Below, in pieces: positions 3,759-55,462 of a stretch of DNA of 56,834 nucleotides. How positions within the stretch are numbered: the first letter of the stretch is position 1; each line of letters starts with the position of its first letter. The stretch comes from a virus. The stretch covers positions 1 to 56,834 of the IMG/VR virus record IMGVR_UViG_3300029708_000018; one strand, given 5' to 3'. Made by a program: the position numbers and the translations under genes. The notes under the pieces were generated by a model, which made no database searches, was not told the DNA's origin, and was given only the letters and a program-made list of their open reading frames with translations.

Positions 3759-4823
3759 TTACTCCTGCATGAACGGTGGTAGTTCCTCTGACTGCTTTTC
3801 GGCTGTGTCAACAACTGCGCCATCAACTACATCCGCCTTATCTTCTATAAATTCAACAGTATTAGCATTTTCAGCAATTTCAGCCTGTGCAACTTGATAT
3901 ACCTCGTCCATTTCAACCTGTGCCTGTCGTGCCATTGGGTCATAATTCTTAGGGTATTTCCTTGTTGCATTGTTACACATTTTTCTCTGTATCATGCTCT
4001 CCGGAGTATCAAGCCAAGCACCGCTTATAAACGGCTTTGCAAGCTCACATTCGAGCATTTCATCTACTGTCGTGCAACCTCTCAAAGCATTAAGAATTTC
4101 TTCTTTTTTGGCTTTAATTTCGCTTTTTTGCTTTGGTGTGGCATCCCATTTATCCTTGCAAATACCAAACGTAACATTTAACAAGTTTTGCTTAACATGA
4201 GCTAAAAGATTTACCTTTACGCTATTTCTGTCTGCTGTTAGATAAGTAATAGTTCCGTCTAACAACTTAACAGGATATACAACTTTTACCGCTTTATCGG
4301 ACAATCCTTTTTCTTCCCACTCCGGCTCTGTAACTGTAAGCCCTTTATGCTTAGGCGGTATGTACTTGTCGCCCTCTTTAATTACCCAATACGGATAAAC
4401 CTGTTTAACATCTTTTCCATAGTTGGCAAGCAAAGAATCATAACCTGTACCCTCGATTCCCATTTCAACCTGTTTCTGCCATATATCCTTGCCTGTCTGC
4501 GGGTCAACTCCCGCCTTTACATTTCTTAACTGAAAATAGCACTCTCTTGGATATGCACTAGCATTTAACTTAAGGCTTGCACAACGCTTTACGATACCTC
4601 TTAAATTGCTTGTATCAAGGTTTCTCATATCAATCTTAGGGTCATTCTTAACAAGATTAAATATGCTCGTCATGGCTTCCATAGCACACTCTTTTGCGTA
4701 ATCGTCCATATCCATTCCAACAGCCTTATAATCATTGATGATAAGCCCTGTCATTGTATTGCTCCACTCACTTAATGATGTGGTAAATGCTTTCTTTTCC
4801 GCAACTGCTGTATTCTCTGCCAT
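3759..4823 (-). CDS. Putative single-strand annealing recombinase (RecT-like).
   Basis: 354 aa. NLVKNDPKI...VKRCASLKLNASAYPRECYFQLRN resembles the RecT core. Lies in a module with SSB and the Rad50-like ATPase. Confidence 0.5.
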   Translation of the reverse strand: MAENTAVAEKKAFTTSLSEWSNTMTGLIINDYKAVGMDMDDYAKECAMEAMTSIFNLVKNDPKIDMRNLDTSNLRGIVKRCASLKLNASAYPRECYFQLRNVKAGVDPQTGKDIWQKQVEMGIEGTGYDSLLANYGKDVKQVYPYWVIKEGDKYIPPKHKGLTVTEPEWEEKGLSDKAVKVVYPVKLLDGTITYLTADRNSVKVNLLAHVKQNLLNVTFGICKDKWDATPKQKSEIKAKKEEILNALRGCTTVDEMLECELAKPFISGAWLDTPESMIQRKMCNNATRKYPKNYDPMARQAQVEMDEVYQVAQAEIAENANTVEFIEDKADVVDGAVVDTAEKQSEELPPFMQE

Positions 4824-4825
4824 AA

Positions 4826-5992
4826 TTAATCCTCGCTTTCTACTTCTTTAAATTCGCCATCAACTAATTTATAGAATATATCTTCTTTGATACGTTCTCC
4901 GTCTACATATTCTGTTTTTACACACTTAGGAATCCATATATAATTACCTTTATTGTCTGTTTCATCAGTTTTAATCCATTCAGCTAACGTTATCCAACTA
5001 CCGATTTTTGCCTTTGCTATTGAATTGCAGCCTGCTGCCATAACCACAGAGTTATTACCTTCTGATGTTATCTGTGCGTAATATCCACTACTGCCTATCT
5101 TTGCGTAATCTCCACTACTGCCTATCTGTGCGTAATCTCCACTACTGCCTATCTGTGCGGAATCTCCACTACTGCCTATCTGTGCGGAATATCCACTACT
5201 GCCTATCTTTGCGGAATCTCCACTACTGCCTATCTGTGCGTAATCTCCACTACTGCCTATCTGTGCGGAATATCCACTACTGCCTATCTGTGCGTAATAT
5301 CCACTACTGCCTATCTTTGTGTAATCTCCACTACTGCCTATCTGTGCGGAATATCCACTACTGCCTATCTGTGCGTAATCTCCACTACTGCCTATCTGTG
5401 CGTAATATCCACTACTGCCTATCTGTGCGGAATATCCACTACTGCCTATCTGTGCGTAATATCCACTACTGCCTATCTGTGCGGAATATCCACTACTGCC
5501 TATCTTTGTGTAATCTCCACTACTGCCTATCTGTGCGGAATCTCCACTACTGCCTATCTGTGCGTAATCTCCACTACTGCCTATCTGTGCGGAATATCCA
5601 CTACTGCCTATCTGTGCGGAATATCCACTACTGATACCAACATCGTCTGCTTTGACTGTCTCAACTTTTGTTTTCTCAATTGTAAAATCTACGCAAGCCT
5701 TAATAAACCCTTTAAGCCCAAGTTTTGCACCAATATGGAGCTTATTTGTAGCTGTTTTATCCTTTCCTTTATAAATATCTCCAATAGCTTCAACATCTGC
5801 AAAATCTGAAATGTTGCCATCTTCATCAATAAGTGGATAATAATTCAACACATCAAATGGATTTTCACAGAAATGCATTACACCCGCTTCACATATTTTG
5901 TTTCCTTTTTCTTCGTAAGTAGTATTTTCTTCGTATTGCTTGCCTTTGCATATCATTCCTCTGTTAAATGCCTTATATCCTTTTATACTCAT
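4826..5992 (-). CDS. Repeat protein: conserved Cys-containing N-terminal domain, then 21 nonapeptide repeats IGSSG[YD][SY]A[QK], then a C-terminal domain.
   Basis: ORF track. The repeats are read in the protein and as a 27-bp DNA unit. The N-terminus is KGYKAFNRGMICKGKQYEE...GVMHFCENPFDVLNYY. Confidence 0.8.
   Translation of the reverse strand: MSIKGYKAFNRGMICKGKQYEENTTYEEKGNKICEAGVMHFCENPFDVLNYYPLIDEDGNISDFADVEAIGDIYKGKDKTATNKLHIGAKLGLKGFIKACVDFTIEKTKVETVKADDVGISSGYSAQIGSSGYSAQIGSSGDYAQIGSSGDSAQIGSSGDYTKIGSSGYSAQIGSSGYYAQIGSSGYSAQIGSSGYYAQIGSSGDYAQIGSSGYSAQIGSSGDYTKIGSSGYYAQIGSSGYSAQIGSSGDYAQIGSSGDSAKIGSSGYSAQIGSSGDSAQIGSSGDYAQIGSSGDYAKIGSSGYYAQITSEGNNSVVMAAGCNSIAKAKIGSWITLAEWIKTDETDNKGNYIWIPKCVKTEYVDGERIKEDIFYKLVDGEFKEVESED
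5071..5637 (-). repeat. Tandem repeat, 21 x 27 bp, in frame within CDS 4826..5992.
   Basis: The unit ctgtgcg[gt]aat[ac]tccactactgcctat is repeated head to tail. Variation is confined to 3-4 nucleotide positions. Confidence 0.95.
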
Positions 5993-9064: not shown

Positions 9065-9265
9065 TTATTTATATATAGTTTCGATTTTTGGGTTTCCCTC
9101 TAAGCTATCTTTTCTCACAATTCTCATATAAGAATCGCTGTCGGATAAAAACAACCAATCATCAGCCCTGCGGTTATTTTTGGCAACCACTTTCTTCTGC
9201 TCTAGTGTCAATGGCTTAAGCTTGTACCGCCTGCCACCAACTTTAATTCTCCTAACATCACTCAT
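9065..9265 (-). CDS. Hypothetical basic protein (66 aa).
   Basis: ORF track. Confidence 0.45.
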   Translation of the reverse strand: MSDVRRIKVGGRRYKLKPLTLEQKKVVAKNNRRADDWLFLSDSDSYMRIVRKDSLEGNPKIETIYK

Positions 9266-11357: not shown

Positions 11358-11726
11358 ATGACAGATGAACAGCAGAAGAAGGTGTTTGCAGAAAACTTAA
11401 ATTACTATATGGAATTAAACCATAAGCAACAAATTGACGTTGCTAAAGATTTAGGAATAAATGCAACAACATTAAATATGTGGTGTAAGGGCAATTCAAT
11501 GCCGGGAACTGGTAAATTAAGGAAGTTAGCTGATTATTTTCATGTAGGAATGACTAATCTGACAGATATAAGAAATACTGACGATGAAGACATTAGATAT
11601 TCTAATGCAATAGCAAATATCAGTATGAATGATGAACGTTTTCGCAACATAATTGTTACTTACAATGAAATGCCTGCTGACAAAAAAGAAACATTTTGTG
11701 AATTTTTCGAAAAGTTTATACAGTAA
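11358..11726 (+). CDS. CI-like XRE-family repressor (122 aa) with no recognisable S24 peptidase domain.
   Basis: HKQQIDVAKDLGINATTLNMWCKGNSMP is the HTH. AAAGGAGG RBS. Divergent from the Cro-like gene. Confidence 0.75.
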   Translation: MTDEQQKKVFAENLNYYMELNHKQQIDVAKDLGINATTLNMWCKGNSMPGTGKLRKLADYFHVGMTNLTDIRNTDDEDIRYSNAIANISMNDERFRNIIVTYNEMPADKKETFCEFFEKFIQ

Positions 11727-11730
11727 CAAA

Positions 11731-11762
11731 AGAGCAGGGTTATCTCCCTGCTCTTTCTTCTT
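11731..11762. terminator. Bidirectional intrinsic terminator.
   Basis: Stem AGAGCAGGG/CCCTGCTCT with a 6-nt loop, followed by a T-rich tail on the plus strand. Confidence 0.7.
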
Positions 11763-11856
11763 TATAGAAACTTTTAACAAAATTATAAAGTATCTTTATT
11801 ATCTTGTCATTTTCTATTTCTTTTATCATTTGTACCATCTCTTTTTTGCGATCCAT
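11740..11856 (-). CDS. Micro-ORF (38 aa, MDRKKEMVQMIKEIENDKIIKILYNFVKSFYKEERAGR) under an SOS-box promoter.
   Basis: GGAGGG RBS lies 7 nt upstream of the ATG. A consensus promoter is about 30 nt upstream. The stop sits in the terminator loop. Confidence 0.5.
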   Translation of the reverse strand: MDRKKEMVQMIKEIENDKIIKILYNFVKSFYKEERAGR

Positions 11857-11882
11857 ATGTAATCCCTCCAATTTCTAACCCC

Positions 11883-11912
11883 ATTATAGAACATTTGTTC
11901 TCCATATGTCAA
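11883..11912 (-). promoter_or_regulatory. Consensus sigma-A promoter (TTGACA-18-TATAAT) carrying a LexA/Cheo-type box AGAACAAATGTTCT.
   Basis: Read on the minus strand as TTGACAtatggAGAACAAATGTTCTATAAT. The box occupies 11888-11901 and matches GAAC-N4-GTTC. Confidence 0.6.
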
Positions 11913-12032
11913 ATTAAATATATAAGTTTGGGCGACAGACTGCCAATTAACTGCCGCCCACCGGAACTTAAAGAATTGTTCCTAAGAGACAAATCAAATA
12001 TACACTTATAAGTACAAATAATATGTCGGATA

Positions 12033-12061
12033 TTGACGATAAGCAAGGCAAAGTTTAAAAT
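12033..12061 (+). promoter_or_regulatory. Promoter (TTGACG-17-TAAAAT) for 12097..12930.
   Basis: Read directly. Confidence 0.45.
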
Positions 12062-12096
12062 AGTAGAAAAGAACTAAACTAAGGGAGGATTATTGT

Positions 12097-12930
12097 ATGG
12101 ATAATGTAGAACTGAACGACACAAAACCTAAAAACAGGAGAGAAATATCAATACTTAGTATTGTCAGCGTTATATTTCTTGTTCCGGCTGTCTTGATATT
12201 TATTCTCGATTTCGCCGCAGGGGAAAACATACCATTGTGGATAGTAATTATTCTTGCGGTTATATCTGCGGCTATCGGAATTGTAGACGTAGAAATCGGA
12301 CATTGTAAAGCTGACCGGCGATTACACTTTTTGTCTGTTTTGTCTATTGTGCTTGCAACCATAAGTATTTCGGTTGCGATCACGTTCACGGCGGCAAGCT
12401 ATTATATTAATCAGATAGGTAGTTTATTTACAACATCAATAAGTGAAGAAAGTAATGTTGATACTGAAAAAGACAGTGAGACAGAGACAGAACAAGAAGA
12501 AAAGCAAGAAAAGAAAAAGACAACCTCGACAGCTAAAAAAGATACAAGTCCAAAAACAATTACTGCTAAAGTTGGCGGCGGCGTAACATATGGAAAAGCC
12601 AAAATTTCATTTACAAATTGCTACGAATATACGGATTATGATGAATGGACAGCACCAAAAGCCGGATATAAAGTTGTTGTATTTGAGTTCGAAGTTGAAA
12701 ATGGGAATAGTAGTAATTTTGATTTTGGTTCTTACGGATTCGAGGGATATGCTGATAATGTAAAGGTTGACCCTTATTATTACATGGATTCGGTCATTGA
12801 ATTGAACTTAGCACCGGGAAGAACTGGTACTGGTACTATTGCTTTCGAGGTACCGGAAGATGCACAGAGCATACAGGCAGATTATGATTTTGGTGGAAAT
12901 AATATAGCTGTTTTCGTATATGGGGAATAA
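12097..12930 (+). CDS. Membrane-anchored protein with a DUF4352-like Ig-fold C-terminal domain. Prophage-expressed moron candidate.
   Basis: Two or three N-terminal TM helices, an acidic linker, then GYKVVVFEFEVENGNSS...LAPGRTGTGTIAFEVPED. GGGAGG RBS. Confidence 0.7.
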   Translation: MDNVELNDTKPKNRREISILSIVSVIFLVPAVLIFILDFAAGENIPLWIVIILAVISAAIGIVDVEIGHCKADRRLHFLSVLSIVLATISISVAITFTAASYYINQIGSLFTTSISEESNVDTEKDSETETEQEEKQEKKKTTSTAKKDTSPKTITAKVGGGVTYGKAKISFTNCYEYTDYDEWTAPKAGYKVVVFEFEVENGNSSNFDFGSYGFEGYADNVKVDPYYYMDSVIELNLAPGRTGTGTIAFEVPEDAQSIQADYDFGGNNIAVFVYGE

Positions 12931-37091: not shown

Positions 37092-37124
37092 TAAAAAGAG
37101 CCGCCCAATAATATGGACAGCTCT
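37092..37124 (-). terminator. Intrinsic terminator ending the 38619-37246 operon.
   Basis: 10-bp stem AGAGCTGTCC/GGGCGGCTCT (two G-U pairs) followed by TTTTTAAT. Confidence 0.6.
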
Positions 37125-37245
37125 ATTCTGTATACCTAATTATTTTTATGAGATTATCTCATAAACAAGTGTATTTATACGTTTTTCCATTTCGTAAAAA
37201 TCACAGGTCTCATTTTCTTTATAATCCGGCATTAGCTTATAATCC

Positions 37246-37851
37246 TCAAACTCTTTTGTCGTTCTTGCCTGCCCCATAACAGTCATAAAATGCATCCGTG
37301 AGCTTTCCAAGCTGTTCCGGTGTCAACTCTTCTATTAGTTCTCTCGGAATCCATTTAAAAGCTCCTCGGAATGTTCTTCCAAAGCATCCAACTTTTGAAG
37401 CTTTCTTGATCTGTTCAAGCTTATACATTTCCCCAAGCTCTTTTGTTGTGATTTCTCCGGATTTAACAGCCTTTTTTCCCTCGGCTGTCAAGATTTCCAT
37501 AAGGTCCTCTTTCTTTACTAATCCGATCCCTTTAACTTTTATATCACTTCCATCATTTTCTTTTTCCAATTCATTTATCAATTTTGGAACGTATACAACG
37601 ATAGTTTTATTTTTTGCGTCATAACTTCCTGCCTTTGTTGTACATTCGGAATAGTTCTCTTTGTATTCCCCGTATAACATCTCTACTTCCATACAGTTTA
37701 ACTTCTTCTCTTCTTCCTTCATGTCTTTGTAGCAGTCTGGGCATAGACAGTTCTTTTCGTAAAAAGAGATCTTTCTTTCTCTGTCCGCTGTCTTTCCAAA
37801 GAGTTCGACTGTGCCTGTATGTCCGCAGGCAAATTTTACATCATATTTCAT
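37246..37851 (-). CDS. Hypothetical protein (201 aa) with an N-terminal Cys/His cluster.
   Basis: ORF track. FACGH...CLCPDC. Confidence 0.55.
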   Translation of the reverse strand: MKYDVKFACGHTGTVELFGKTADRERKISFYEKNCLCPDCYKDMKEEEKKLNCMEVEMLYGEYKENYSECTTKAGSYDAKNKTIVVYVPKLINELEKENDGSDIKVKGIGLVKKEDLMEILTAEGKKAVKSGEITTKELGEMYKLEQIKKASKVGCFGRTFRGAFKWIPRELIEELTPEQLGKLTDAFYDCYGAGKNDKRV

Positions 37852-38099
37852 ATTTGATTTCCCCCTATCAAATCAAATTCTTTTTCAACTGGAACGTCTT
37901 TACCATTCCATGTTTTTTCGGCACCTCGAAGAAAGAACGACCAAAAAATTTTATCTGAAAGTTCGGAATTGAGTTCTTCTTTTTCGATTGGCTTTCGCTC
38001 CGCTAATTGAGAATCAAGTAGCTTATTAATGCCGTCAAGAGCAATACTTCTGTCATAACCTAGATCTGTAATTTTTTCTAAAAGTTCCAAAGTTGTCAT
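37848..38099 (-). CDS. Hypothetical protein (83 aa).
   Basis: ORF track. GAGGAGGAA RBS. ATGA overlap with the next gene. Confidence 0.55.
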   Translation of the reverse strand: MTTLELLEKITDLGYDRSIALDGINKLLDSQLAERKPIEKEELNSELSDKIFWSFFLRGAEKTWNGKDVPVEKEFDLIGGNQI

Positions 38100-38101
38100 A
38101 T

Positions 38102-38176
38102 CTATTCCTCCTCTTCAAATGTCTTTGGCTTGCTATATTCGGCTCTGTTATCTGCGTCAACTATTCTGTATTTCAT
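38102..38176 (-). CDS. Micro-ORF (24 aa, MKYRIVDADNRAEYSKPKTFEEEE).
   Basis: GGAGGT lies upstream. The ORF fills an intergenic gap. Very short, so the call is tentative. Confidence 0.25.
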   Translation of the reverse strand: MKYRIVDADNRAEYSKPKTFEEEE

Positions 38177-38181
38177 ACTCT

Positions 38182-38394
38182 TTATACCTCCTTTAAATCA
38201 AAACTACCTACTTTTTCACAAGCATTTTCCCACTCGTTGAATTGCTCGAGTGTAAGCTTATTTCCTTGGCGGTCGCATTCTCCAACTTTGAGCGCTGACC
38301 ACTCGCCGCTATTCCTAGCAATTTCGTATACAGTGTTGTTACTGTATACCCTCGTGAAATTTTTACTTTTTTCATATTTCCCTGATACTCTCAT
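38182..38394 (-). CDS. Hypothetical protein (70 aa).
   Basis: ORF track. Confidence 0.5.
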   Translation of the reverse strand: MRVSGKYEKSKNFTRVYSNNTVYEIARNSGEWSALKVGECDRQGNKLTLEQFNEWENACEKVGSFDLKEV

Positions 38395-38412
38395 TATTTT
38401 TCTCCTCCTAAA

Positions 38413-38619
38413 TTATTTTAAAATGATAGAAACAACACCATGATTGAGTCCTTGCTTCCAGCTCTCAACCTCTTCATTTAAATAATTTGGATGTACTATC
38501 CCATCCAAAAAATCGCCATACTCAAAGCTTGTATGGTCTTTGTGGGCATTGTTGTACACTAAAACAGGTGTACATTTTTCTGAACAATATACTTTCTCTA
38601 AAACGTTTTTGACTGTCAT
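38413..38619 (-). CDS. Hypothetical protein (68 aa).
   Basis: AAAGGAG RBS. First gene downstream of the operator-containing promoter. Confidence 0.55.
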   Translation of the reverse strand: MTVKNVLEKVYCSEKCTPVLVYNNAHKDHTSFEYGDFLDGIVHPNYLNEEVESWKQGLNHGVVSIILK

Positions 38620-38659
38620 AATATTTCTCCTTTCGTGATTACCTCTTTACTATAATCAT

Positions 38660-38688
38660 ATTGTATTCTAATATTAGAATAATGTCAA
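38660..38688 (-). promoter_or_regulatory. Promoter TTGACA-17-TACAAT with the 16-bp palindrome ATTCTAATATTAGAAT in its spacer.
   Basis: Read on the minus strand. The palindrome occupies 38665-38680. Confidence 0.7.
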
Positions 38689-38695
38689 TAGGTTT

Positions 38696-38923
38696 TTAAT
38701 AATATTTTATTTTTTCTTCATCCGTTGGCACAATCTCCACTAGATCGCCCGGCTGGCACTTGCACATAATACATATTTTATTAAGCGTTTCTAGTGTGAT
38801 ACTCTTTCCGGCTTTTATATTCTGTGCGGTTTGCGCCGGCAAAAGCCTTTCTTTCTGTATGCGTGCCTGATTATATCCATGCTCTTTTAATAATGTAAAA
38901 ATGTCTGCTTTGTATTTTATCAT
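38696..38923 (-). CDS. XRE-family HTH regulator (75 aa).
   Basis: ARIQKERLLPAQTAQNIKAGKSITLETLNKIC is the HTH. AAGGAGGAAG RBS. Confidence 0.75.
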   Translation of the reverse strand: MIKYKADIFTLLKEHGYNQARIQKERLLPAQTAQNIKAGKSITLETLNKICIMCKCQPGDLVEIVPTDEEKIKYY

Positions 38924-38946
38924 TTACTCTTCCTCCTTATATAAAG

Positions 38947-38975
38947 ATAGTATCATTTGCGTATCAATATGTCAA
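38947..38975 (-). promoter_or_regulatory. Promoter TTGACA-17-TACTAT of the XRE gene. Part of it forms the left arm of a 17-bp inverted repeat.
   Basis: Read on the minus strand. AATTGACATATTGATAC (38977-38961) recurs on the plus strand at 40693-40709. Confidence 0.6.
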
Positions 38976-39008
38976 TTAAAAATATTCTAATTTTTGAATA
39001 AAAAGTTG

Positions 39009-39037
39009 TTGACTTTATTCTAATATTAGAATATAAT
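39009..39037 (+). promoter_or_regulatory. Consensus promoter TTGACT-17-TATAAT with the same 16-bp palindrome in its spacer.
   Basis: The palindrome occupies 39017-39032. A degenerate copy lies at about 38983-38999. Confidence 0.75.
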
Positions 39038-39074
39038 ACAAGTATCAAATGATGTACGAAAGTGAGGTAACAAT

Positions 39075-39410
39075 ATGAAAGATTATACAAAGTTTATGAA
39101 ATGGGCGGTTGTTTACGTAACCGACAGAAAAGAACAGGACGACAGAAAGAGCAAAGTTAATGTTGAAGCACTTTTTAGTTCTCCAGTACAGGCGGAGGAT
39201 AATTATATCATCCACAACCCAGAAATTAAGCGTTATATTCTCAATGTTGATGATTTAGAAGAGTTTGAAACAGTATACAATCAATTTCAAGATTTAAGGG
39301 AAAAATATGGAGAATATGCAATTTTCCACGTTAAAGACCTTAATTTTAGTTGTGATAAGGAAAACAAATGGCGTGAGATATTAGAAGTATATACAAGTAT
39401 TGATTTTTAG
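39075..39410 (+). CDS. Hypothetical protein (111 aa). First gene of the cassette.
   Basis: GTGAGGT RBS. ORF track. Confidence 0.6.
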   Translation: MKDYTKFMKWAVVYVTDRKEQDDRKSKVNVEALFSSPVQAEDNYIIHNPEIKRYILNVDDLEEFETVYNQFQDLREKYGEYAIFHVKDLNFSCDKENKWREILEVYTSIDF

Positions 39411-39499
39411 CCGAAACGCTCCGGTTTGGAGCGTCAGCCGCGGGATGGTCTCCCGGCTCTGATGATGGCAGACCGCACAATGAAAGGATGGTTGATACT

Positions 39500-39814
39500 A
39501 TGAGAACAATTAAATTACAAGGAATACACACACCACAAAAAGCAATTCCGGCGGCAGAATTAAAGCCGGGAATGGTTACAGTTTGGAATTTTGGTTACAC
39601 TTCCACAGTTAAAAGCGTAGAGCCTACCAAGAGCGGAAAAAGCGTTAAATGCGTTATTATTTCCAACGAAAGCGGAAACGAACACACTAGAACAATGCGA
39701 GCTGATAGGCTTGTAGGAGTTAAAGAGGAAGAGCCAAAAATCCAATTGATAAGGCACTTGCAAGCAGGCAAAAAACATATAGTGGAATATATAGCGATGT
39801 CGGCACAGCATTAG
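39500..39814 (+). CDS. Hypothetical protein (104 aa, starts MRTIKLQGIH). Possibly extended by a -1 shift at an A6 run.
   Basis: AAAGGATGG lies 8 nt upstream of the ATG at 39500. Confidence 0.55.
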   Translation: MRTIKLQGIHTPQKAIPAAELKPGMVTVWNFGYTSTVKSVEPTKSGKSVKCVIISNESGNEHTRTMRADRLVGVKEEEPKIQLIRHLQAGKKHIVEYIAMSAQH

Positions 39815-39939
39815 ACACTTTTAGTACTTCGGAGCTTGCAGAGTATTATATACAACGTTTTGGTGGTAGCGCATTGCGTTATTTCCTCGAGCAAGGAATA
39901 ATTTCCGCAGAAATTAGCAAAGAAAAAGAAGCGATATAA
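39724..39939 (+). other. Open -1 frame with no start codon and a protein-like translation (…DTFSTSELAEYYIQRFGGSALRYFLEQGIISAEISKEKEAI).
   Basis: This frame overlaps the 3' end of 39500..39814. It becomes accessible from that gene at AAAAAA (39770-39775). Confidence 0.35.
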
Positions 39940-39940
39940 T

Positions 39941-39983
39941 AGCAAGGTTGGCACGCTTCCGGGGTTCGATTCCCCGGCTTGCT
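39941..39983 (+). ncRNA. tRNA top-half mimic (acceptor-like stem stacked on a canonical T-arm). It has no anticodon arm, so it is not a tRNA gene.
   Basis: AGCAAG/CTTGCT (6 bp) directly abuts CCGGGG-TTCGATT-CCCCGG, which contains the GGTTCGATTCC T-arm consensus. Confidence 0.45.
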
Positions 39984-40024
39984 TTACCGGAATGACCGGG
40001 AAATTTTAAAAATATGGAGGAATT

Positions 40025-40270
40025 ATGAGTATGGAAAAGCTGAAAAGATTACAGAAAAAGTTGTCTGCATCTGGATATAATGCAGAATTTATTACGGTTT
40101 ACAACCGCAACGGATCCGGTGAAAACGTTCCGGCATTGCGTATAAGCACAGACTACGAAGGACAGTACCCGCCGAAAGAGACATACACGGCTATAAGCGA
40201 TATTAAAAAGCTATGTAAAAATCATGTAACAGAATGCCGCGGATTTTACACCGCCATATTTATTTATTAA
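40025..40270 (+). CDS. Hypothetical protein (81 aa).
   Basis: TGGAGGAATT RBS. ORF track. Confidence 0.6.
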   Translation: MSMEKLKRLQKKLSASGYNAEFITVYNRNGSGENVPALRISTDYEGQYPPKETYTAISDIKKLCKNHVTECRGFYTAIFIY

Positions 40271-40272
40271 CT

Positions 40273-40319
40273 AACCGCCGCAGAGGATGCCAGCCGGACC
40301 GATACCGGCGGCGGTTTTT
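40273..40319 (+). terminator. GC-rich intrinsic terminator.
   Basis: AACCGCCGC...GCGGCGGTT with an inner CCGG/CCGG hairpin, followed by TTTTT. Confidence 0.65.
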
Positions 40320-40358
40320 CCTATAAGGAATAATATTAAAATACGGAGGAAATAAAAA

Positions 40359-40652
40359 ATGACAAAAGAATATCAGAAAATGCTTGGCAATCTGCCCTAC
40401 AAATCGCTTGAAGCGGCAGAAAAAGCATTAAAAAGCCGCTATGATGTAGACATAAGCACGTTAAAAAGTGCCGATTACAATAAACTGATACATGGTGTAC
40501 AATACAGCATATCAAATATTTTTCTGACACTTTCGGAAAGTGCATCCTGCGAAGAGGTTTTGAAAGAATTAGGCAACAAAAAATACCGCACAGAAGCCTT
40601 TGAGCGGTATTTAAGGCATGAAAGTTTTATGTCGATATTTATGCGGTTGTGA
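40359..40652 (+). CDS. Hypothetical protein (97 aa).
   Basis: ACGGAGGAAA RBS. ORF track. Confidence 0.6.
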   Translation: MTKEYQKMLGNLPYKSLEAAEKALKSRYDVDISTLKSADYNKLIHGVQYSISNIFLTLSESASCEEVLKELGNKKYRTEAFERYLRHESFMSIFMRL

Positions 40653-40656
40653 TTAT

Positions 40657-40683
40657 AGAGTGGTACTCGTACCACTCTTTTTA
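40657..40683 (+). terminator. Intrinsic terminator ending the plus-strand cassette.
   Basis: AGAGTGGTAC/GTACCACTCT followed by TTTTT. Confidence 0.75.
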
Positions 40684-40694
40684 ACGTATATGAA

Positions 40695-40724
40695 TTGACA
40701 TATTGATACAAACTGGTGTATGCT
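40695..40724 (+). promoter_or_regulatory. Promoter TTGACA-18-TATGCT. Right arm of the 17-bp inverted repeat. It faces a region with no ORFs.
   Basis: AATTGACATATTGATAC at 40693-40709 is identical to the XRE-gene promoter. Confidence 0.5.
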
Positions 40725-40977
40725 ATAAGTGTTTAACTTTGTATGTCCTTTATGTTGTATAAATGTTTACCAAAATCGTAAAAATATCTACAAAAATAGC
40801 AAAATGAAGTGATCTGGCAAAATTCCTTAAATTTTCGTGAATTGTCAGAAAACTTTAGTTTATTAAAGCGGCGGTCACGTTCTTTACACGTTCTCTACAA
40901 GTTTTTCCAAAAATTTATTTTTAAAATTTTCAGATTTAAATTGCCCTATTTTAGGGGGTAGGGGGGTTCTTTTTCTG

Positions 40978-41130
40978 CTAGAAATTTTTTGCGGTGCAAA
41001 AGTTTTGTTCCGTAAAAATCAGCGATTTAGCTGTATAACTGGACTGCTTCAATTCTTTTATTAACTTTTCCTTAGTCATTCCCGGATTAGTCCTTTGTAT
41101 ATATTCCAGTAATTCATTTAATTTATCCAT
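40978..41130 (-). CDS. Small protein (50 aa, starts MDKLNELLEYIQ).
   Basis: The internal ATG overlaps the upstream stop (coupling). Confidence 0.45.
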   Translation of the reverse strand: MDKLNELLEYIQRTNPGMTKEKLIKELKQSSYTAKSLIFTEQNFCTAKNF

Positions 41131-41452
41131 AGTATCTATCACTCCTAACTGCTCCAAGTACCATATCAACAATGTCAAATACTTCATCTCCATAAGTTGC
41201 TACAAAATCGCACAATATCTCTTCCTGCTCAATTGGTAAATACACATCATAGGACATACAGATTGCGTGGCATACTTCATGTATCAACACCTTGCGTTCC
41301 ATGTGTCCATGTAAAGCATTTGACAGATAAATTGTGTGTGTATTTCTATCTGTTACACCCAAGCTGATTGTGTTGTTAGACCGCCTTAATTCGCTTGAAT
41401 TTGAATTTTTATATTGTACTTGCCACATTGTGCCATTAATTGTAAAAATCAT
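41123..41452 (-). CDS. HExxH zinc metallopeptidase-like protein (ImmA/IrrE- or SprT-like, 109 aa).
   Basis: LIHEVCHAI motif. Located in a regulatory neighbourhood. Confidence 0.55.
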   Translation of the reverse strand: MIFTINGTMWQVQYKNSNSSELRRSNNTISLGVTDRNTHTIYLSNALHGHMERKVLIHEVCHAICMSYDVYLPIEQEEILCDFVATYGDEVFDIVDMVLGAVRSDRYYG

Positions 41453-41517: not shown

Positions 41518-42213
41518 TCAACGCTTTTTACTTGATTCAAGCTTTATGAGATCATTCAAAAATTCTTCTGCAAGTCTGCTAAGTTCTGGGAAATAGTCTA
41601 TCATATCCATAGGATATACTGGTTTGTACCCTCTCTCATTCTCATAAATTTTCTCTGCGGCTGTCAAGTCGTATTCCTCTCCTACACGCATAAGTATGTG
41701 ATGATATAAAACTGACAACGTTGTATTAGCCATATCACACAGCTTATTTATTTTACGTCTATTTCTTATATAAAAACTTGGATTTCTCGGTACTGGTGTA
41801 CTGCTTGTATGATATACAGGCAATTCTAAAGGCTCCGCTTGAAGTACCGGCTTTTCCTGCTCCTTAACTTTGAAGTATGTGTTTACAAGCTGTCTTTGTA
41901 CTTGCCATGATAAATCATCTGTAAATGCCTTAACTATCATTAAATAACCGCTTTCCGTAAGTAAATAAGTTGTAAGATTAGGATTTCCTTTTATTTTTTC
42001 ATTAGGGGAATATCGTTCCCCTAATTCTTTTCTTGTCATTTCAAAATAATCTTCGCCTAATATAAAATGCTGTTTGTGTTTTTGAAAAGCCTTCTTTGCA
42101 GTATCTGTTTTCTTTCCGTGTATTCTGTCAATATCTTTCATGGTAACAACTCTCTGCCCATTATACTCACGGATTGCAAGCTCTGTGTTCTCAATTTTTA
42201 CAAGCTCTGCCAT
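41518..42213 (-). CDS. ORF6N/KilA-type DNA-binding (antirepressor-like) protein.
   Basis: ELAIREYNGQRVVTMKDIDRIHGKKTDTAKKAFQKHKQHFILGEDYF is a typical ORF6N N-terminus. Confidence 0.65.
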   Translation of the reverse strand: MAELVKIENTELAIREYNGQRVVTMKDIDRIHGKKTDTAKKAFQKHKQHFILGEDYFEMTRKELGERYSPNEKIKGNPNLTTYLLTESGYLMIVKAFTDDLSWQVQRQLVNTYFKVKEQEKPVLQAEPLELPVYHTSSTPVPRNPSFYIRNRRKINKLCDMANTTLSVLYHHILMRVGEEYDLTAAEKIYENERGYKPVYPMDMIDYFPELSRLAEEFLNDLIKLESSKKR

Positions 42214-51200: not shown

Positions 51201-52169
51201 TCATACTGTATTTTCTTGCTTTATATTCAGATTTTTAAACATAGCGCACATAACATCTACGACAATACTGTTTCCAAATTGCTTATACAACTGCGTATTG
51301 CTGTTTACTGCTGCCATTTTGTCAATATCTTCATCAGATACACCCATCAGCCGTCCACACTCTCTCGGCGTTAGCTTTCTGATACGATATTGCGTGGCAA
51401 TATGGCTATTTGCATATCCGTGTGTGCCAGCTACAAGATTGGCCGATATGCCATTATCGGAAATAACTGTACCGCATTGAGAACCATTGCTTGATATTTG
51501 ACCGACTTTTTCAATAACGGCATTATCTGCATTAAACCCAGTCATATTGCTGCGTTCGTAACCACTCAAAATTGTACTTGTAATGTCATTCTGTTTGCCT
51601 TTAGTGGATATGCCTTGTTTTTCAAGGACCAGGTTATCTTTCTGCACACTCGTCAAGCAATTACTTGTGCCTTGCATATTCACCTCTAATCTCTGCTCTG
51701 TTGGGTTTCCCACAGTTCTATCTGACGGATTATCAGGATTTCTGCCACGCATAGCGACTATGCACATATTGTCTTTGTGTGCACCTATCCCTTTGTAATA
51801 CCGTGATGTTACTGTACTTGCTGTTGGTGTATCGACATCACATATTTGGGCATTATCTAAGCTGTCCAAATGTCCTTCCGGCATTTTATTCAATTTGCAC
51901 GGAATTTGCTCTTCAAGAATTTTCGGCTCTTGATTGCCATCTTGTATTGTGCTCAATGTTGGACTCCCATCATCATAAATTCTGTTGGTACTCTCAAATA
52001 TTGCTTCAAGAGAACCTATTACATTTACATCTGTTATTACTTCAATCACTCCGCTACTTGTTTTATTGGATCTTAGGGTAGGACAAATTCCCTCCCTAAG
52101 TACCTTTTCGCCACCGAATTTTTCACTTTCAAAAAGCACTATTCCGATAGCGTCTGTTAATTTTTCCAT
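51201..52169 (-). CDS. C5-cytosine DNA methyltransferase, C-terminal subunit: several TRD-like segments plus motifs IX and X.
   Basis: RKLTPRECGRLMG (IX), QLYKQFGNSIVVDV (X), and five or six xPT[LV]-type segments. GGAG RBS lies 7 nt upstream of its own ATG. Confidence 0.75.
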   Translation of the reverse strand: MEKLTDAIGIVLFESEKFGGEKVLREGICPTLRSNKTSSGVIEVITDVNVIGSLEAIFESTNRIYDDGSPTLSTIQDGNQEPKILEEQIPCKLNKMPEGHLDSLDNAQICDVDTPTASTVTSRYYKGIGAHKDNMCIVAMRGRNPDNPSDRTVGNPTEQRLEVNMQGTSNCLTSVQKDNLVLEKQGISTKGKQNDITSTILSGYERSNMTGFNADNAVIEKVGQISSNGSQCGTVISDNGISANLVAGTHGYANSHIATQYRIRKLTPRECGRLMGVSDEDIDKMAAVNSNTQLYKQFGNSIVVDVMCAMFKNLNIKQENTV

Positions 52170-53122
52170 TCAATTACTCCATTACTTCCATAATTATCAA
52201 GGCCTTTATAATCTCTTGCCCTAAGAGTTACGGCTACATCAATCTGTTTGTCTGCCGTCTCTCCCATATCCTTTAACAACCAAGTTTCCAACTTGTTGTT
52301 GGTTTGATCTCTCTGTTGTGGCTTATTGATTGTTCCGTCAACGCATGTCTGTCTGTCAAGATTGTGTTGTGGTAAGGTGCCGTTGTCAATAAGCTGTTTT
52401 ATCAGCTTGTCAGCCTTTTCATTGTTGATGTAATACTTTTCATCTACATTATCCTCAAGATAGTCTTTCAACTTCTTTTTGAGTGGTATAGGCTGCGGAA
52501 AATGGTAATTGTACTCACCCAGAAATGAAAACATAAAACATCTTTCACGATTTTGTGCTACACCATAATTTTTAGCATTTAAGTCTTGATAGTAATTTGT
52601 GTAACCCAGGCCTTCAAGGAAGTCTAACCACTTTCTAAAATCAGGCATATTATCTTGACTATGCACCTGTGGCACATTCTCCATGAATAAAATCTGTGGC
52701 AATTCTCCGCTGCTGCCTTTGATTTCTTTCAGTATTCTTTCAACTTCCCATAACAGACCGCTTCTTGTGCCACTGCCCTTAGACATTCCGGCTTGCTTTC
52801 CGGCAACTGATAAATCTGTACAAGGGAATGAGTAAGTAAGTATGTATGTAAATGTATCTGTGTCGCAAATATTCAAATCTTCTGCATGGATCTTGGTTAT
52901 ATCCATTGTAGGAAAATCCGTACCATGCACTGCGTTATAGCTTGTAATAGCGTACTTATCAAACTCCACAACTCTGTAATGTTCAAATTTAGCACCTATT
53001 CTCTTTAGCGCCATTGCCTGACTTCCGTAGCCGGCAAATAGTTCTATCAATCGTATAGGCTTTGTTATGTTGATCGGTTCTCTTGTGAAGTCAAATAAAG
53101 ACATTTGTATTAAATCTTCCAT
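52157..53122 (-). CDS. C5-cytosine DNA methyltransferase, N-terminal catalytic subunit (motifs I-VIII plus the first TRD).
   Basis: ELFAGYGS (I), SFPCTDLS (IV), ENV (VI), QNRERCF (VIII), VTLRARDYKG. Confidence 0.85.
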   Translation of the reverse strand: MEDLIQMSLFDFTREPINITKPIRLIELFAGYGSQAMALKRIGAKFEHYRVVEFDKYAITSYNAVHGTDFPTMDITKIHAEDLNICDTDTFTYILTYSFPCTDLSVAGKQAGMSKGSGTRSGLLWEVERILKEIKGSSGELPQILFMENVPQVHSQDNMPDFRKWLDFLEGLGYTNYYQDLNAKNYGVAQNRERCFMFSFLGEYNYHFPQPIPLKKKLKDYLEDNVDEKYYINNEKADKLIKQLIDNGTLPQHNLDRQTCVDGTINKPQQRDQTNNKLETWLLKDMGETADKQIDVAVTLRARDYKGLDNYGSNGVIEWKN

Positions 53123-53160
53123 ATCTCACCTCTACATAAAGTCTTCAATATTCATCTGCC

Positions 53161-54078
53161 TTATACAAGGCTCTCCGATAAAAAATCTTCAATGCTCATT
53201 TGTCCTACTGGACAATTCATTTTGTCAGCATTTGCGGCAATTTCAAGGTTTGCAACTGCCTGTTTGTAATAGCTTTCCTTAAGTTCAAATCCTATGCCGC
53301 GTCTGCCGAGTGTAACAGCCACATATGGACTGCTGCCGATTCCGGCAAATGGGTCTAATACAATGTCGTTCGGATTCGTCCACAGTTCGATGCATCTCTG
53401 AATCACTTCGAGCTGCAAAGGACAAATGTGACGCTCGTCCTTTTCTGCTCTTGCCGATTTTTTCTGCAATGTGTCAGACTGTCTTATATCCATCCATACT
53501 GGACTTGCGTAATTCCGCCATACATCAACCGGAAATGTTTCATGCGTATGCGACACTCTTTCCGGATTTTCTCCCGGCTTGCGCATTGTAACGATATAAT
53601 CCGGTATTCCCTGTCGATTCATTGTACTGTCTTTTCTAATCTGCTTATGTAATAACCCTAAAGCCTTTGTCCTATGCATCTCAGTAACCGGATTTTTCCA
53701 AATCGTAACCTTGCTGTGATAAATAAATCCGCAATCTTCAAAAATCTGTCTGCAAAGTGCCGGAAAGTCTTTAAGACCAATAACTCCGTCTCTTTCTTTC
53801 ATGAGTGGCAAATCCATGCAATGAAATGAAAGTAATCTGCCCGGCATTGTAACTCTGTAAAGTTCCTTTGCAAGAAATTTGAAATGATCGTAAAACTCTG
53901 TATCTCCCTTGCAGTTCCCCATGTCCCTGTCGCTGTTAGAATATGTATACAGGCTTGCAAATGGCGGACTGAAAATTGTGTAGTGAATGCTGTTATCTGG
54001 GATATTTTTTATAAGTTCCACACTGTCTCCGTTATAAATTGCATACTGTTTTTCAATTGTCTGCGCTAAAACGTCCAT
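53161..54078 (-). CDS. Beta-class N4-cytosine/N6-adenine DNA methyltransferase. The SPPF motif suggests N4-cytosine.
   Basis: IFSPPFASLY (motif IV) lies N-terminal to DPFAGIGSS (motif I). AAGGAG RBS precedes the internal ATG at 54078. Confidence 0.8.
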   Translation of the reverse strand: MDVLAQTIEKQYAIYNGDSVELIKNIPDNSIHYTIFSPPFASLYTYSNSDRDMGNCKGDTEFYDHFKFLAKELYRVTMPGRLLSFHCMDLPLMKERDGVIGLKDFPALCRQIFEDCGFIYHSKVTIWKNPVTEMHRTKALGLLHKQIRKDSTMNRQGIPDYIVTMRKPGENPERVSHTHETFPVDVWRNYASPVWMDIRQSDTLQKKSARAEKDERHICPLQLEVIQRCIELWTNPNDIVLDPFAGIGSSPYVAVTLGRRGIGFELKESYYKQAVANLEIAANADKMNCPVGQMSIEDFLSESLV

Positions 54079-54094
54079 TTTTTCTATCTCCTTT

Positions 54095-55462
54095 TTACGC
54101 TGTAAATTCTTCCCATTCCGGCAAAGCCATTGTTTCATGTGGCTCATATGGGGTGCTGATTCTGCAAGTGTTTTTCAGTTCTTTCTTTGTAATCTCTTTT
54201 GTCAGTTCTGTCATTTCTGACTGCATTTTCTGAAAATCTTTCTGCTTTCTCTCAATGTTTTCTTTGACACACCCCTCTTTCGAAGAAATGATTATGTACA
54301 CATTTACTGCTTCCGTCTGACCAAATCTCCAACATCTTCTCAACGCTTGGTAGTACTGCTCGTAGCTGTCTGAAAGTCCGGTAAAAATCATATTGTGGCA
54401 ATTCTGCCAGTTCATGCCAAATCCGGCAATCTTAGGTTTTGTGACTAAGCATTTAATATCCCTATTGCTAAAATTCAACATTGAGCTTGACTTGTGCGTA
54501 TCTTTGTCGCTGCCTTGCACTTCCACAGATTCATTAATCAGTTCATGTAATTTGTGGCTTTCGTCATTCAGATCACACCATACAAGCCACTGCTCATCTG
54601 AACTGTTTACCAATTCTGCCGCTACTGTGCATCTGTCAATTAAGCTATCTTTTCTAGCCTGTCTGCGCTCTGTCAGCGTGAGTTTTTCGGTCACAGGTTC
54701 TTTTCCGTCAACAACAATTTCTTTAATGTTAATTGGCGGCAAGTTATACCCGGAAACGTCATATCCAATATTGTTTGGATTGTCCACGAACACACTGAAT
54801 GTCGCTAACCACTGCCAAAATACATCCTCTGCGTGTCCTTTTAATCTCCATTTTGATGTTTCTCCGCCATCATGAACAAAGAACATGGAAAGCATTTCTG
54901 CCCTTGTCATAACTCCACAAAATTCTGAATGATTTCCCAATTCCATGTAGTCATTCGGTGCTGGAGTTGCGGTACAAGCCAATTTGTACGGCACATCATG
55001 GAAATTCTGAATAATCGCTGTCCTCACCTTGCCGGAATAAGATTTTAAGATACTACTTTCATCAAGTACGATTCCGGTAAATTCATTTGCGATAAATCTA
55101 TCCAGTTTTTCGTAATTCGTGATGTTAATTCCGTCAATACATTGTGATTGTTCCTCAACGACATTTGCCACATATCCAAACTTTTCCGCTTCTCGTTTCG
55201 TTTGATCTGCAACTGCCAATGGTGCAAGGATAAGCACCTTGCCGCCTGTATGCACGTGAACTTGATGCGCCCACGATAACTGCATAGGTGTTTTTCCAAG
55301 TCCACAATCAGCAAAGATACAAGCCTTTCCTTTCTTTAACGCCCAACGAACAATGTCTTTCTGAAAATCGTATAACATTGGGTTTAATTCGGATTTATCA
55401 ATGTCGAATCCACTGCTTTCAAGTACGAATCTTTTATTTGCTAAAAATTCGTTATAATCCAT
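54095..55462 (-). CDS. SNF2/DEAD-like superfamily-2 helicase.
   Basis: ADCGLGKT (Walker A), VLDESSILK (DExx), and a C-terminal helicase domain. Confidence 0.8.
   Translation of the reverse strand: MDYNEFLANKRFVLESSGFDIDKSELNPMLYDFQKDIVRWALKKGKACIFADCGLGKTPMQLSWAHQVHVHTGGKVLILAPLAVADQTKREAEKFGYVANVVEEQSQCIDGINITNYEKLDRFIANEFTGIVLDESSILKSYSGKVRTAIIQNFHDVPYKLACTATPAPNDYMELGNHSEFCGVMTRAEMLSMFFVHDGGETSKWRLKGHAEDVFWQWLATFSVFVDNPNNIGYDVSGYNLPPINIKEIVVDGKEPVTEKLTLTERRQARKDSLIDRCTVAAELVNSSDEQWLVWCDLNDESHKLHELINESVEVQGSDKDTHKSSSMLNFSNRDIKCLVTKPKIAGFGMNWQNCHNMIFTGLSDSYEQYYQALRRCWRFGQTEAVNVYIIISSKEGCVKENIERKQKDFQKMQSEMTELTKEITKKELKNTCRISTPYEPHETMALPEWEEFTA

Follow-up and report, generated by a model that had tools for sequence, protein, structure and literature searches.

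The DNA analyzed here comprises positions 1 to 56,834 of the IMG/VR virus record IMGVR_UViG_3300029708_000018 (this whole 56,834-nt stretch is called the window below), and the locus of interest lies at 38660–40724. It contains the minus-strand gene of a 75-amino-acid (aa) XRE-type helix-turn-helix (HTH) protein, two strong promoters bearing the same palindrome, and a plus-strand array of four small open reading frames (ORFs). The first three ORFs are each followed by a structured RNA element: a type II hammerhead ribozyme after ORF1, a tRNA-like acceptor/T-arm mini-helix (TLS) after ORF2, and an element that we designate E3 after ORF3. The same three element types recur in equivalent spacers of more than 200 related arrays in Lachnospiraceae-associated phages. 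We propose that the locus is probably a repressor-gated slot for hypervariable accessory genes, the polycistronic RNA of which would be cut between cistrons. A first-pass annotation, made from the sequence of the same DNA, had described the regulator, its operators, and hairpins behind the ORFs but missed the main feature, namely that these hairpins are a hammerhead ribozyme and tRNA-like elements of the processing type.

Regulator, promoters, and operators

The array is preceded by a cassette promoter, P_cas (TTGACT-17-TATAAT, 39009–39037, plus strand), and a leftward promoter, P_L2 (TTGACA-17-TACAAT, 38688–38660, minus strand), lies on the other side of the regulator gene. Both match the consensus at 11 of 12 positions, in line with their earlier description as near-consensus promoters, and they are identical at 27 of 29 nt. 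P_cas is kept in relatives, and the 29-nt core of P_L2 is duplicated in close relatives. The 17-nt spacer of each promoter holds the same perfect 16-bp palindrome, ATTCTAATATTAGAAT, which we term operator O1 in P_cas (39017–39032) and operator O3 in P_L2 (38665–38680); a degenerate copy with two mismatches, O2 (38984–38999), lies between two divergent promoters. All three had been located correctly at first pass. The center of O2 is 33 bp from that of O1, about three helical turns, and an O2–O1 pair 32–34 bp apart is kept in most regulator-carrying loci. With up to three mismatches allowed, the window contains six operator matches versus 1.17 expected, a number reached by 0 of 100 shuffles. 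An operator-like site at 9120–9135 was dismissed as a chance match because it lies within a coding region and has no promoter.

The regulator gene (38696–38923, minus strand) encodes an XRE/HTH_26 protein (PF13443, E = 1.1e-10) with 128 relatives in IMG/VR; a PDB sequence search gave no significant match. Its likely promoter (TTGACA-17-TACTAT with a TG extension, 38947–38975, minus strand) keeps its position in relatives, with a spacer that differs among them. In relatives, the layout of promoter and operator is kept, with a palindrome present at this position of the promoter in every case. The half-sites vary symmetrically with the regulator variant (TTCTAAT, CTCTAAT, CCCTAAT, TCCTAT, and CACTAAT), and this symmetric change is seen both in O1, the promoter site, and in O2, the upstream site. 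Because the half-sites change symmetrically as the regulator diverges, there is strong comparative support for the palindrome as the predicted operator of the 75-aa protein. The centers of O1 and O3 fall near −20 of their own promoters (start sites estimated), a placement that fits repression by occlusion. The arrangement proposed in the first-pass annotation, an HTH regulator beside operators that gate two strong promoters, is well supported at the sequence level, and we consider a repressor and operator logic highly probable.

P_L2 serves a leftward block of small ORFs under the same operator (37097–38619, minus strand), in which four or five small ORFs run from 38619 to 37246, including ORFs of 68, 70, 83, and 201 aa, and are followed by a terminator at 37124–37097. 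Because the block stops at this terminator, the regulator would gate two small-gene blocks rather than the late genes. No GC-rich intergenic elements occur in the leftward block. The 201-aa ORF (37246–37851, minus strand), the best-conserved gene of the block in relatives, has an N-terminal CxH...CxxC zinc-ribbon-like motif; in Pfam, PHROGs, and PADLOC its sole match was a PHROG of unknown function (phrog_16123), and the other ORFs of the block had no match in any of the three.

RNA elements between the cistrons

The stretches downstream of ORFs 1–3 (39404–39482, 39938–40001, and 40267–40329) have a GC content of 57–59%, compared with a window mean of 37.8%. A GC-rich hairpin had been reported after every ORF at first pass; this holds for ORFs 1–3, and the hairpin after ORF4, with which the array ends, is an ordinary intrinsic terminator (40657–40683, plus strand; 9-bp stem and UUUUU, z = −2.35).

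The element after ORF1 is a type II hammerhead ribozyme (RF02276; 39409–39477, plus strand), which scored 63.9 bits against an Rfam gathering cut-off of 37 and whose start overlaps the ORF1 stop codon. Its core is intact (CUGAUGA, GAAA, and the cleavage-site GUC). The alignment and the descriptor match showed stems I and III to be loop-closed and stem II to be open. By inspection, loop I and the 3' tail can be seen to pair as a pseudoknot (GGUC/GACC) typical of type II. Cleavage is predicted after C39435, which would place the ribozyme's own stem I at the new 5' end; the ribosome-binding site (RBS) of ORF2 follows directly downstream of the ribozyme. The same hammerhead follows the first cassette gene in 9 of the 14 relatives scanned and was found in further loci. 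With family membership and an intact core, self-cleavage is predicted with high confidence.

A second hammerhead subtype, in which CCGAUGA (or CCAAUGA or CAGAUGA) replaces CUGAUGA and which has its own loop–tail pseudoknot, recurs among the related loci used for comparison (designated by L-numbers). It is not detected by Rfam; the subtype is present in L121 (6884–6970), L003 (around 5588), L142, L170, and others.

The element after ORF2 is a tRNA-like acceptor/T-arm mini-helix (39941–39983, plus strand; 61.8 bits with our own covariance model), in agreement with the earlier remark that one of the hairpins mimics the top half of a tRNA. A 6-bp acceptor-like stem is stacked on a 6-bp T stem, giving a 12-bp stack; the T loop is canonical (TTCGATT), a 12-nt linker takes the place of the D and anticodon arms, and there is no CCA. 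The element thus combines the T-loop consensus UUCRANU, the G53–C61 closing pair, and the stack of about 12 bp by which a mini-helix is defined. It is not a full tRNA, having neither cloverleaf nor anticodon arm, and no genuine tRNA was called in the window by ARAGORN or matched by the Rfam tRNA family. The sole Rfam resemblance was to mascRNA-menRNA (RF01684), for which the score was sub-threshold (20.2 versus 42.5 bits, E = 0.76); because the score lies below the Rfam cut-off, we place the element outside that family.

Three to four nucleotides past the mini-helix there is a small hairpin (39987–39999, plus strand), which is followed by the ORF3 RBS. This hairpin is present with 108 of 137 distinct mini-helix copies, and by eye its stem changes are compensatory among relatives. 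A theta or hepatitis delta virus (HDV)-like ribozyme at this place was rejected, as no Rfam match was obtained and the 13-nt hairpin is too short.

An alignment of all mini-helices with MAFFT misregistered the 5' acceptor strands, so a ten-copy in-register seed was used to build the covariance model. Searching about 1 Mb with this model gave 45 matches at E < 1e-3, every one of them on the sense strand of the cassette. In the mini-helix alignment, which was fitted to the model and therefore inflates the pairing counts, 95.6% of the cells were paired and both-sided changes were present in 10 of 13 pairs; 0 of 500 shuffles matched the observed values, and slid controls paired at 39–61%. Across the 137 distinct copies, the stack was always 12–13 bp, the T loop was TTCGATT in 98, and position 73 was U or A in 122, while positions 74–76 were U-rich (UAC, UUA, UUC, or UUU) and never CCA. 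We compared these with 215 genuine tRNAs of related phages, which are mostly without CCA and whose trailers open with the same triplets.

In Firmicutes, RNase Z cuts CCA-less tRNA precursors just past the discriminator base, and both RNase Z and RNase P recognize a tRNA by its acceptor/T-arm half. RNase P is also known to cut phage and operon RNAs (PMC11143913). In 61 of the 137 copies, the first two bases of the acceptor are part of the upstream stop codon, so that a 5' cut by RNase P would delete the stop codon, which argues against RNase P or implies a cost. A 3' cut by RNase Z is for this reason the more coherent model. It would also parallel the hammerhead, in that the upstream message would keep a structured 3' end and the downstream message would start with a hairpin. 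From the geometry and the trailers, we judge enzymatic cutting at the mini-helix to be somewhat more probable than its absence; host tRNA enzymes are the likely cutters, and RNase Z would fit best.

Two further observations concern tRNA-related elements in the comparison set. A second mini-helix class (GCCGUUC-CUGGUGG...GGCUGG-UUCAAUU-CCAGCC-GGGCGGC) stands at the end of many arrays (L016–L019, L055, and L065–L071), where the window has the plain terminator. Related phages (L003, L013, L039, L119–L125, and others) carry clusters of genuine tRNAs, mostly without an encoded CCA, of the Gln, Ser, Tyr, Ile, and Met kinds together with a few of the suppressor type.

Element E3, after ORF3 (40273–40316, plus strand; z = −2.1), is represented by 17 distinct copies. 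An outer stem of 7 bp is followed by a conserved linker (CAGAGGAUGC), an inner hairpin of 5 bp with a loop of 7 nt, and then a U-run. The layout resembles that of the mini-helix; the 7-nt loop is not a T loop. E3 was rejected as a known ribozyme, since it matched no Rfam family at E ≤ 10, and it was flagged by the terminator scan. A small hairpin (40320–40328, plus strand), whose stem sequence varies with the pairing kept as judged by eye, lies between E3 and the ORF4 RBS. The mini-helix and E3 are alike in what comes after them: U-rich sequence, a small hairpin, and the next RBS. For E3 itself, a cutting or attenuating role is a tentative assignment.

Comparative analysis of related arrays

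We took a census of 256 partly redundant loci using our own descriptors, with block-shuffled sequences as controls. The descriptors matched 206 hammerheads, 251 mini-helices, and 68 E3 elements, compared with 1, 0, and 0 in the shuffled controls. With H for hammerhead, T for mini-helix, and E for E3, the arrays showed the orders HT, HTE (the order in the window), HHT, TET, and HHTE. The median lengths of the spacers were nearly the same for the three elements (hammerhead, 85 nt; mini-helix, 91 nt; E3, 87 nt), and the elements begin 2–3 nt past the upstream stop codon and finish 32–44 nt before the next start. Most spacers that were first scored as empty hold variant copies missed by the strict descriptors, the recurrent CCGAUGA-core hammerhead being one such variant. 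A promoter scan found no promoter in the approximately 41–43 nt between the RNA elements and the next start codon, and the downstream genes would therefore depend on read-through.

The possibility, raised at first pass, that the segment is a swappable module was borne out by comparison of genomes. The flanks are conserved in relatives, with the regulator gene on one side and an ImmA-like gene and a 71-aa gene on the other, whereas nearly every relative has different ORFs in between; gene content varies on both sides of the regulator. At the DNA level, resemblance to the window is reduced to three islands (39405–39475, 39957–40024, and 40269–40349) that coincide with the RNA elements, and these islands persist where the flanking ORFs are unrelated. 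ORF families tend to keep their 3' element, while their downstream neighbors vary: the hammerhead stands behind ORF1-family genes in 32 of 33 cases, the mini-helix behind those of the ORF2 family in 15 of 15, and E3 behind those of the ORF3 family in 4 of 5. Because each family retains its own 3' element, the unit of exchange looks like an ORF plus the element behind it.

The 17-bp inverted repeat that had been described as promoter DNA bracketing the block (arms 38961–38977 and 40693–40709) is perfect, and each arm holds a TTGACA −35 hexamer. The left arm consists of the −35 hexamer and adjoining spacer of the regulator's own promoter. The right arm is made up of the −35 hexamer and spacer sequence of an outward promoter-like site (TTGACA-18-TATGCT, 40693–40724, plus strand), and TTGACA-17/18-TATGCT or TATAAT sites recur at the right end of related arrays (L039–L041 and L049). 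The promoter-like character of the repeat is thus upheld, but its role as a boundary is not: the repeat is absent from all 118 related loci checked, and because it is unique to this genome among these relatives, we rejected it as a module boundary or the end of a mobile element. It is read as a presumptive local duplication or conversion between two promoters. Beyond it, between the array terminator or outward promoter and the convergent 71-aa gene, lie about 250 nt of non-coding DNA (40725–40977) with two close copies of ACACGTTCT (GGTCACGTTCTTTACACGTTCTCTAC) and a G-rich hairpin; similar motifs are found in L039–L041 and L049.

Gene content of the arrays

The four small plus-strand ORFs reported at first pass are all present (111, 104/108, 81, and 97 aa), the 104-aa ORF being a frameshift allele. 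None of the four matched a Pfam, PHROG, or PADLOC family, in keeping with the earlier statement that no motifs were recognized in them. ORF1 (111 aa; 39075–39410, plus strand) is acidic (isoelectric point, pI, 4.8) and represents the commonest family in the arrays; it has 300 homologues, all unnamed. Its AF2 model is confident (predicted local distance difference test, pLDDT, 86) and showed no fold match in PDB or BFVD at E ≤ 1e-3. ORF3 (81 aa; 40025–40270, plus strand) belongs to a family found in 5 arrays and ORF4 (97 aa; 40359–40652, plus strand) to one found in 2; neither gave a significant PDB sequence match. Across 237 unique arrays, about 961 ORFs with a median length of 63 aa were called and fell into about 210 families, 85 of them singletons, counts that are approximate because ORF calling in the arrays was lenient. 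A Pfam search with ten of the commonest families in the whole set of arrays gave nothing.

ORF2 is, in the window, a 104-aa frameshift allele (39500–39814) of a 146-aa gene (39500–39939, plus strand), the lesion being a 1-nt deletion in an A-run near 39736–39740. In most relatives, ORF2 has 146 aa and ends just before the mini-helix, and in others the gene is reduced to the 75-aa N-terminal domain. Three further sequence clusters also carry the truncated allele, with out-of-frame tails that have diverged, and for that reason the frameshift is not an assembly error confined to the window.

Homology or fold searches had been recommended for all four proteins; fold comparison gave a match for ORF2 and none for ORF1, and ORFs 3 and 4 were compared with PDB by sequence, as described above. 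The model of the ORF2 N-terminal region (pLDDT 74.5 overall and 78–86 over most of the barrel) placed the N-terminal domain (39500–39730) with domain I of EF-P/eIF5A, a KOW-like fold (Foldseek probability 1.0, E about 1e-3). The root-mean-square deviation from EF-P domain I was about 2 Å over 62–66 residues, with a template modeling (TM) score of 0.79 normalized to 5wxk_B, and by eye the invariant TKSGKSVKC loop of ORF2 aligns with the modified-lysine loop of EF-P. At the sequence level, there was no Pfam match and no PDB profile match at E ≤ 10, and hhalign of ORF2 against E. coli EF-P gave a probability of 5%. Sequence homology to EF-P was accordingly rejected, and the fold match stands by itself as a lead: judging from the model, ORF2 may be a translation-directed phage protein, possibly a mimic of EF-P domain I.

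Proposed mechanism and alternative explanations

In the mechanism that we propose, the 75-aa HTH_26 protein, presumably as a dimer, would bind the 16-bp palindrome between the −35 and −10 hexamers of both promoters and shut off the rightward four-gene array together with the leftward small-gene block. The weaker O2 site, 33 bp upstream of the rightward promoter, would probably add cooperativity or autoregulation. The rightward transcript, about 1.65 kb long, would be punctuated between its cistrons. After ORF1, the hammerhead would cut itself past C39435; after ORF2, the mini-helix would be cut by host tRNA enzymes, by RNase Z past the discriminator base and possibly by RNase P at the 5' side; after ORF3, E3 would do an equivalent job by a route that the model leaves unspecified. 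Upstream messages would keep a structured 3' end, and downstream ones would open with a hairpin just before their RBS. Each small gene would thus become an insulated unit of ORF and 3' element, and such units could move from one phage to another through recombination at these elements, which are conserved.

What the analysis shows directly are the sequence features, the assignment of the hammerhead to its family, the covariation of the mini-helix, the equivalent positions of the three elements, and the variability of the cargo; binding by the repressor, cleavage of the RNA, the enzymes involved, and the function of the cargo are inferred. The hammerhead and the tRNA-like fold share a slot and their distances to the stop codon and the RBS, and the only obvious property that they have in common is getting cut; the shared slot makes the hypothesis of a message-cutting insulator directly testable. 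A stronger form of the model is possible, and we place it somewhat short of an even chance: phages of gut Lachnospiraceae would use the hammerhead, the mini-helix (cut by RNase Z or RNase P of the host), and E3 interchangeably to separate cistrons, and E3 could be a new self-cleaving ribozyme or a new nuclease signal.

Several observations weigh against message cutting under repressor control, in addition to the stop-codon overlap that bears on RNase P and the inflation of the mini-helix pairing counts described above. The thermodynamic z-scores of the hammerhead region (−0.44) and the mini-helix region (−0.15) are unremarkable. No covariation was found in E3, the stems of which are invariant among its 17 distinct copies, a test that is uninformative because the stems never vary, and the E3 U-run is also compatible with a leaky terminator. 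Finally, a regulator homologue was recognizable upstream in only 25 of 67 independently found arrays, which indicates that regulator and array are separable and that arrays can pair with other regulators.

The best-surviving alternative concerns the cargo and is compatible with RNA processing. Here, the small genes would encode anti-defense proteins and the HTH protein would be Aca-like, allowing inhibitors to be made in a burst soon after the DNA enters and then to be shut off by the regulator. The tiny and very diverse ORFs in a fixed slot, the strong promoter with its operator, the small HTH neighbor, and the acidity of ORF1 (pI 4.8) are all in favor, as is the report that the anti-restriction gene ardA of Agrobacterium is flanked by three hammerheads (PMC3088659). 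The first-pass annotation had likewise called the locus acr/aca-like. Its observation of an HTH protein with an inverted-repeat operator over the cargo promoter stands, but the regulator is divergent, on the opposite strand, and not downstream in the cargo operon. Further, no homology was found to the annotated anti-defense families in PHROGs, nor any in Pfam, in searches that included no dedicated anti-defense library; ORF1 has no fold match in PDB or BFVD; and the EF-P domain I-like fold of ORF2 points to translation rather than defense. We regard an anti-defense role for the cargo as plausible but less likely than not.

Less likely still is that only the hammerhead cuts, and that the mini-helix and E3 are attenuators, leaky terminators, or 3'-end stabilizers that grade expression along the array. 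The GC-rich stems of both are followed by a run of 4–5 T, and the selection of E3 by the terminator scan agrees with such a role. A strict T-loop sequence and a 12–13-bp tRNA geometry would, however, be needless for termination, and the 3' trailers of the mini-helix match those of genuine CCA-less phage tRNAs. The elements also interchange in position with a self-cleaving ribozyme, and the genes downstream of them lack promoters of their own.

A second switch of the Cro/CI type, which the first-pass annotation had offered as its alternative, appears improbable. On this reading, the leftward promoter would be the means by which the HTH protein sets the timing of the early-to-late transition, with only an incidental part for the rightward genes. 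The locus does lie between the replication/anti-repressor region and the packaging genes, and its three operators, one of them about 320–350 bp from the other two, recall looping switches. TP901-1 CI is a looping switch of this kind. The reading is weakened, however, by the early leftward terminator (37124–37097), which confines P_L2 to four or five small ORFs before the terminase genes are reached, and by a separate CI-like HTH gene (11358–11726, plus strand), which is more likely to encode the lysogeny repressor; the variability of genes on both sides of the regulator in relatives would also be unexpected for core developmental genes.

That the elements are DNA-level recombination sites for cassette capture, like integron attC sites, with their RNA folds secondary, is very improbable. 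In its favor, arrays with different ORFs resemble one another in DNA sequence at the elements only, and an ORF and its 3' element move together, as in integron cassettes. Against it, no integron-type integrase adjoins the arrays, the sole tyrosine recombinase being that of the phage itself at a distance of about 6 kb; conservation falls on the functional cores of the RNAs (hammerhead catalytic core and T loop), with covariation that keeps RNA pairing; all copies are on the sense strand; and ordinary homologous recombination at conserved junctions explains the shuffling.

Relation to known systems

Type II hammerheads have been reported to flank single genes or short blocks of variable identity in prophages, and a tandem hammerhead array of Clostridium scindens, a member of the Lachnospiraceae, cleaves in vitro (Perreault et al. 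2011, PMC3088659). Processing of polycistronic RNA was proposed for the prophage hammerheads (PMC3088659), and a 2019 review called the role of the hundreds of hammerheads and other small ribozymes in bacteria and prophages undefined (PMC6765202). The hammerhead described here resembles those of prophages in being of type II, in the pseudoknot that loop I forms with the 3' tail, and in lying between small co-directional genes (PMC3088659). Unlike in those arrays, the hammerhead here alternates with tRNA-like mini-helices and E3 in equivalent spacers, an operator-bearing promoter and a small HTH regulator are present, and the size of the cargo pool has been quantified. The locus is therefore best filed with the hammerhead-punctuated prophage arrays, a known kind, and the defined repressor/operator gate and the use of tRNA-like elements and E3 as alternative punctuation are new. 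The literature that we searched contained no tRNA-like mini-helix or E3-like element in an equivalent position; this search did not cover the RAGATH candidate list, in which a prior description is possible. Weinberg et al. (2015) is reportedly the discovery paper for twister-sister, pistol, and hatchet and for the RAGATH motifs.

The likeness to acr–aca operons lies in the small HTH repressor, the inverted-repeat operator over a strong promoter, and the small, fast-evolving genes. In acr–aca operons, the regulator is the last gene, whereas here it is divergent; no Acr homologue was found, and the operator is also present on a second promoter. To our knowledge, acr loci have not been described as carrying RNA punctuation elements. 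The mini-helix recalls tRNA punctuation and MALAT1–mascRNA, where a tRNA-shaped fold within a longer RNA marks a cut by host tRNA enzymes, RNase P and RNase Z (here predicted), but it differs in being from a bacteriophage, in its intercistronic position in an mRNA, and in having only the acceptor/T-arm half. Theta ribozymes, which are minimal HDV-like ribozymes, also occur in gut phages and link ribozyme and tRNA biology in RNA 3'-end processing (PMC10879173). They sit downstream of genuine tRNAs (PMC10879173), whereas the present locus has neither a genuine tRNA nor an HDV-like match.

Like integron cassettes, the array consists of small promoterless ORFs behind one promoter, each with a structured 3' element and drawn from a very large pool; unlike integrons, it has no IntI or attI in its flanks, and its 3' elements are RNA functional motifs rather than attC. 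The same logic of releasing insulated units underlies synthetic spacers such as RiboJ, ribozyme–guide RNA (gRNA)–ribozyme constructs, and tRNA–gRNA arrays. Those spacers are engineered; the array would be a natural counterpart with both devices in one transcript.

If the proposed mechanism is correct, the purpose of hammerheads in bacteria and phages would be to cut and insulate messages, and the mechanism would explain how several hundred tiny genes can be shuffled in a plug-and-play manner as ORF plus 3' element. The arrays form a large unexplored pool of tiny phage proteins under predicted repressor control and are a natural search ground for anti-defense and host-takeover factors. The mini-helix, E3, and the 5' hairpins are compact natural parts that could serve in multi-gene constructs for Firmicutes, and E3 is a candidate new RNA class.

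Genome context and host

The gene content of the window, as annotated by PHROG and Pfam scans, is that of a temperate, siphovirus-like phage with nearly all genes on the minus strand. A helicase, three DNA methyltransferases, and a DnaD-like protein are encoded at 50–55.5 kb, followed by a Tn916-type excisionase and integrase (46.2–47.9 kb), an Ant-type anti-repressor (41518–42213), and a small ImmA/SprT-like metallopeptidase (41123–41452). Past the locus come the genes for the small and large terminase subunits, portal, capsid, tape measure, and tail, and SbcC-like and RecT genes lie at 3.7–9 kb. The cassette had been called the only sizeable plus-strand block of the late half at first pass, but the window has a second plus-strand block at 11358–12930. 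It consists of a 122-aa HTH_3 gene (11358–11726) and a DUF4352 membrane-protein gene (12097–12930), a pair at 11.3–12.9 kb that looks like a lysogeny module, with the first gene probably encoding a CI-type repressor and the second probably a membrane or exclusion protein expressed from the prophage.

We compared 38300–41100 by blastn with 50,697 GenBank phage records; only two gut phages matched, over about 70 nt within the hammerhead, and these records contained no annotated relative of the locus. Many related contigs of 50–60 kb are present in IMG/VR. When species-representative genomes were scanned for the exact pattern of the mini-helix, 10 carried it; most of these are Lachnospiraceae, namely Roseburia, Lachnospira intestinalis CLA-AA-H89B (cultured), Acetatifactor, and Clostridium sp. 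CAG:510. Because most carrier genomes belong to Lachnospiraceae, this is probably the host family of the phage.

The three DNA methyltransferase genes of the window stand in a row beside the helicase gene (51201–54147, minus strand) and may serve self-protection against restriction. Outside the arrays of related loci, int-alpA RNA and skipping-rope RNA were matched at the Rfam gathering level in L013 (357–424), L047 (7863–7929 and 10144–10210), and L125 (1618–1702). In L126, the regulator region and the leftward block are separated by an inserted DDE transposase gene (3898–5091).

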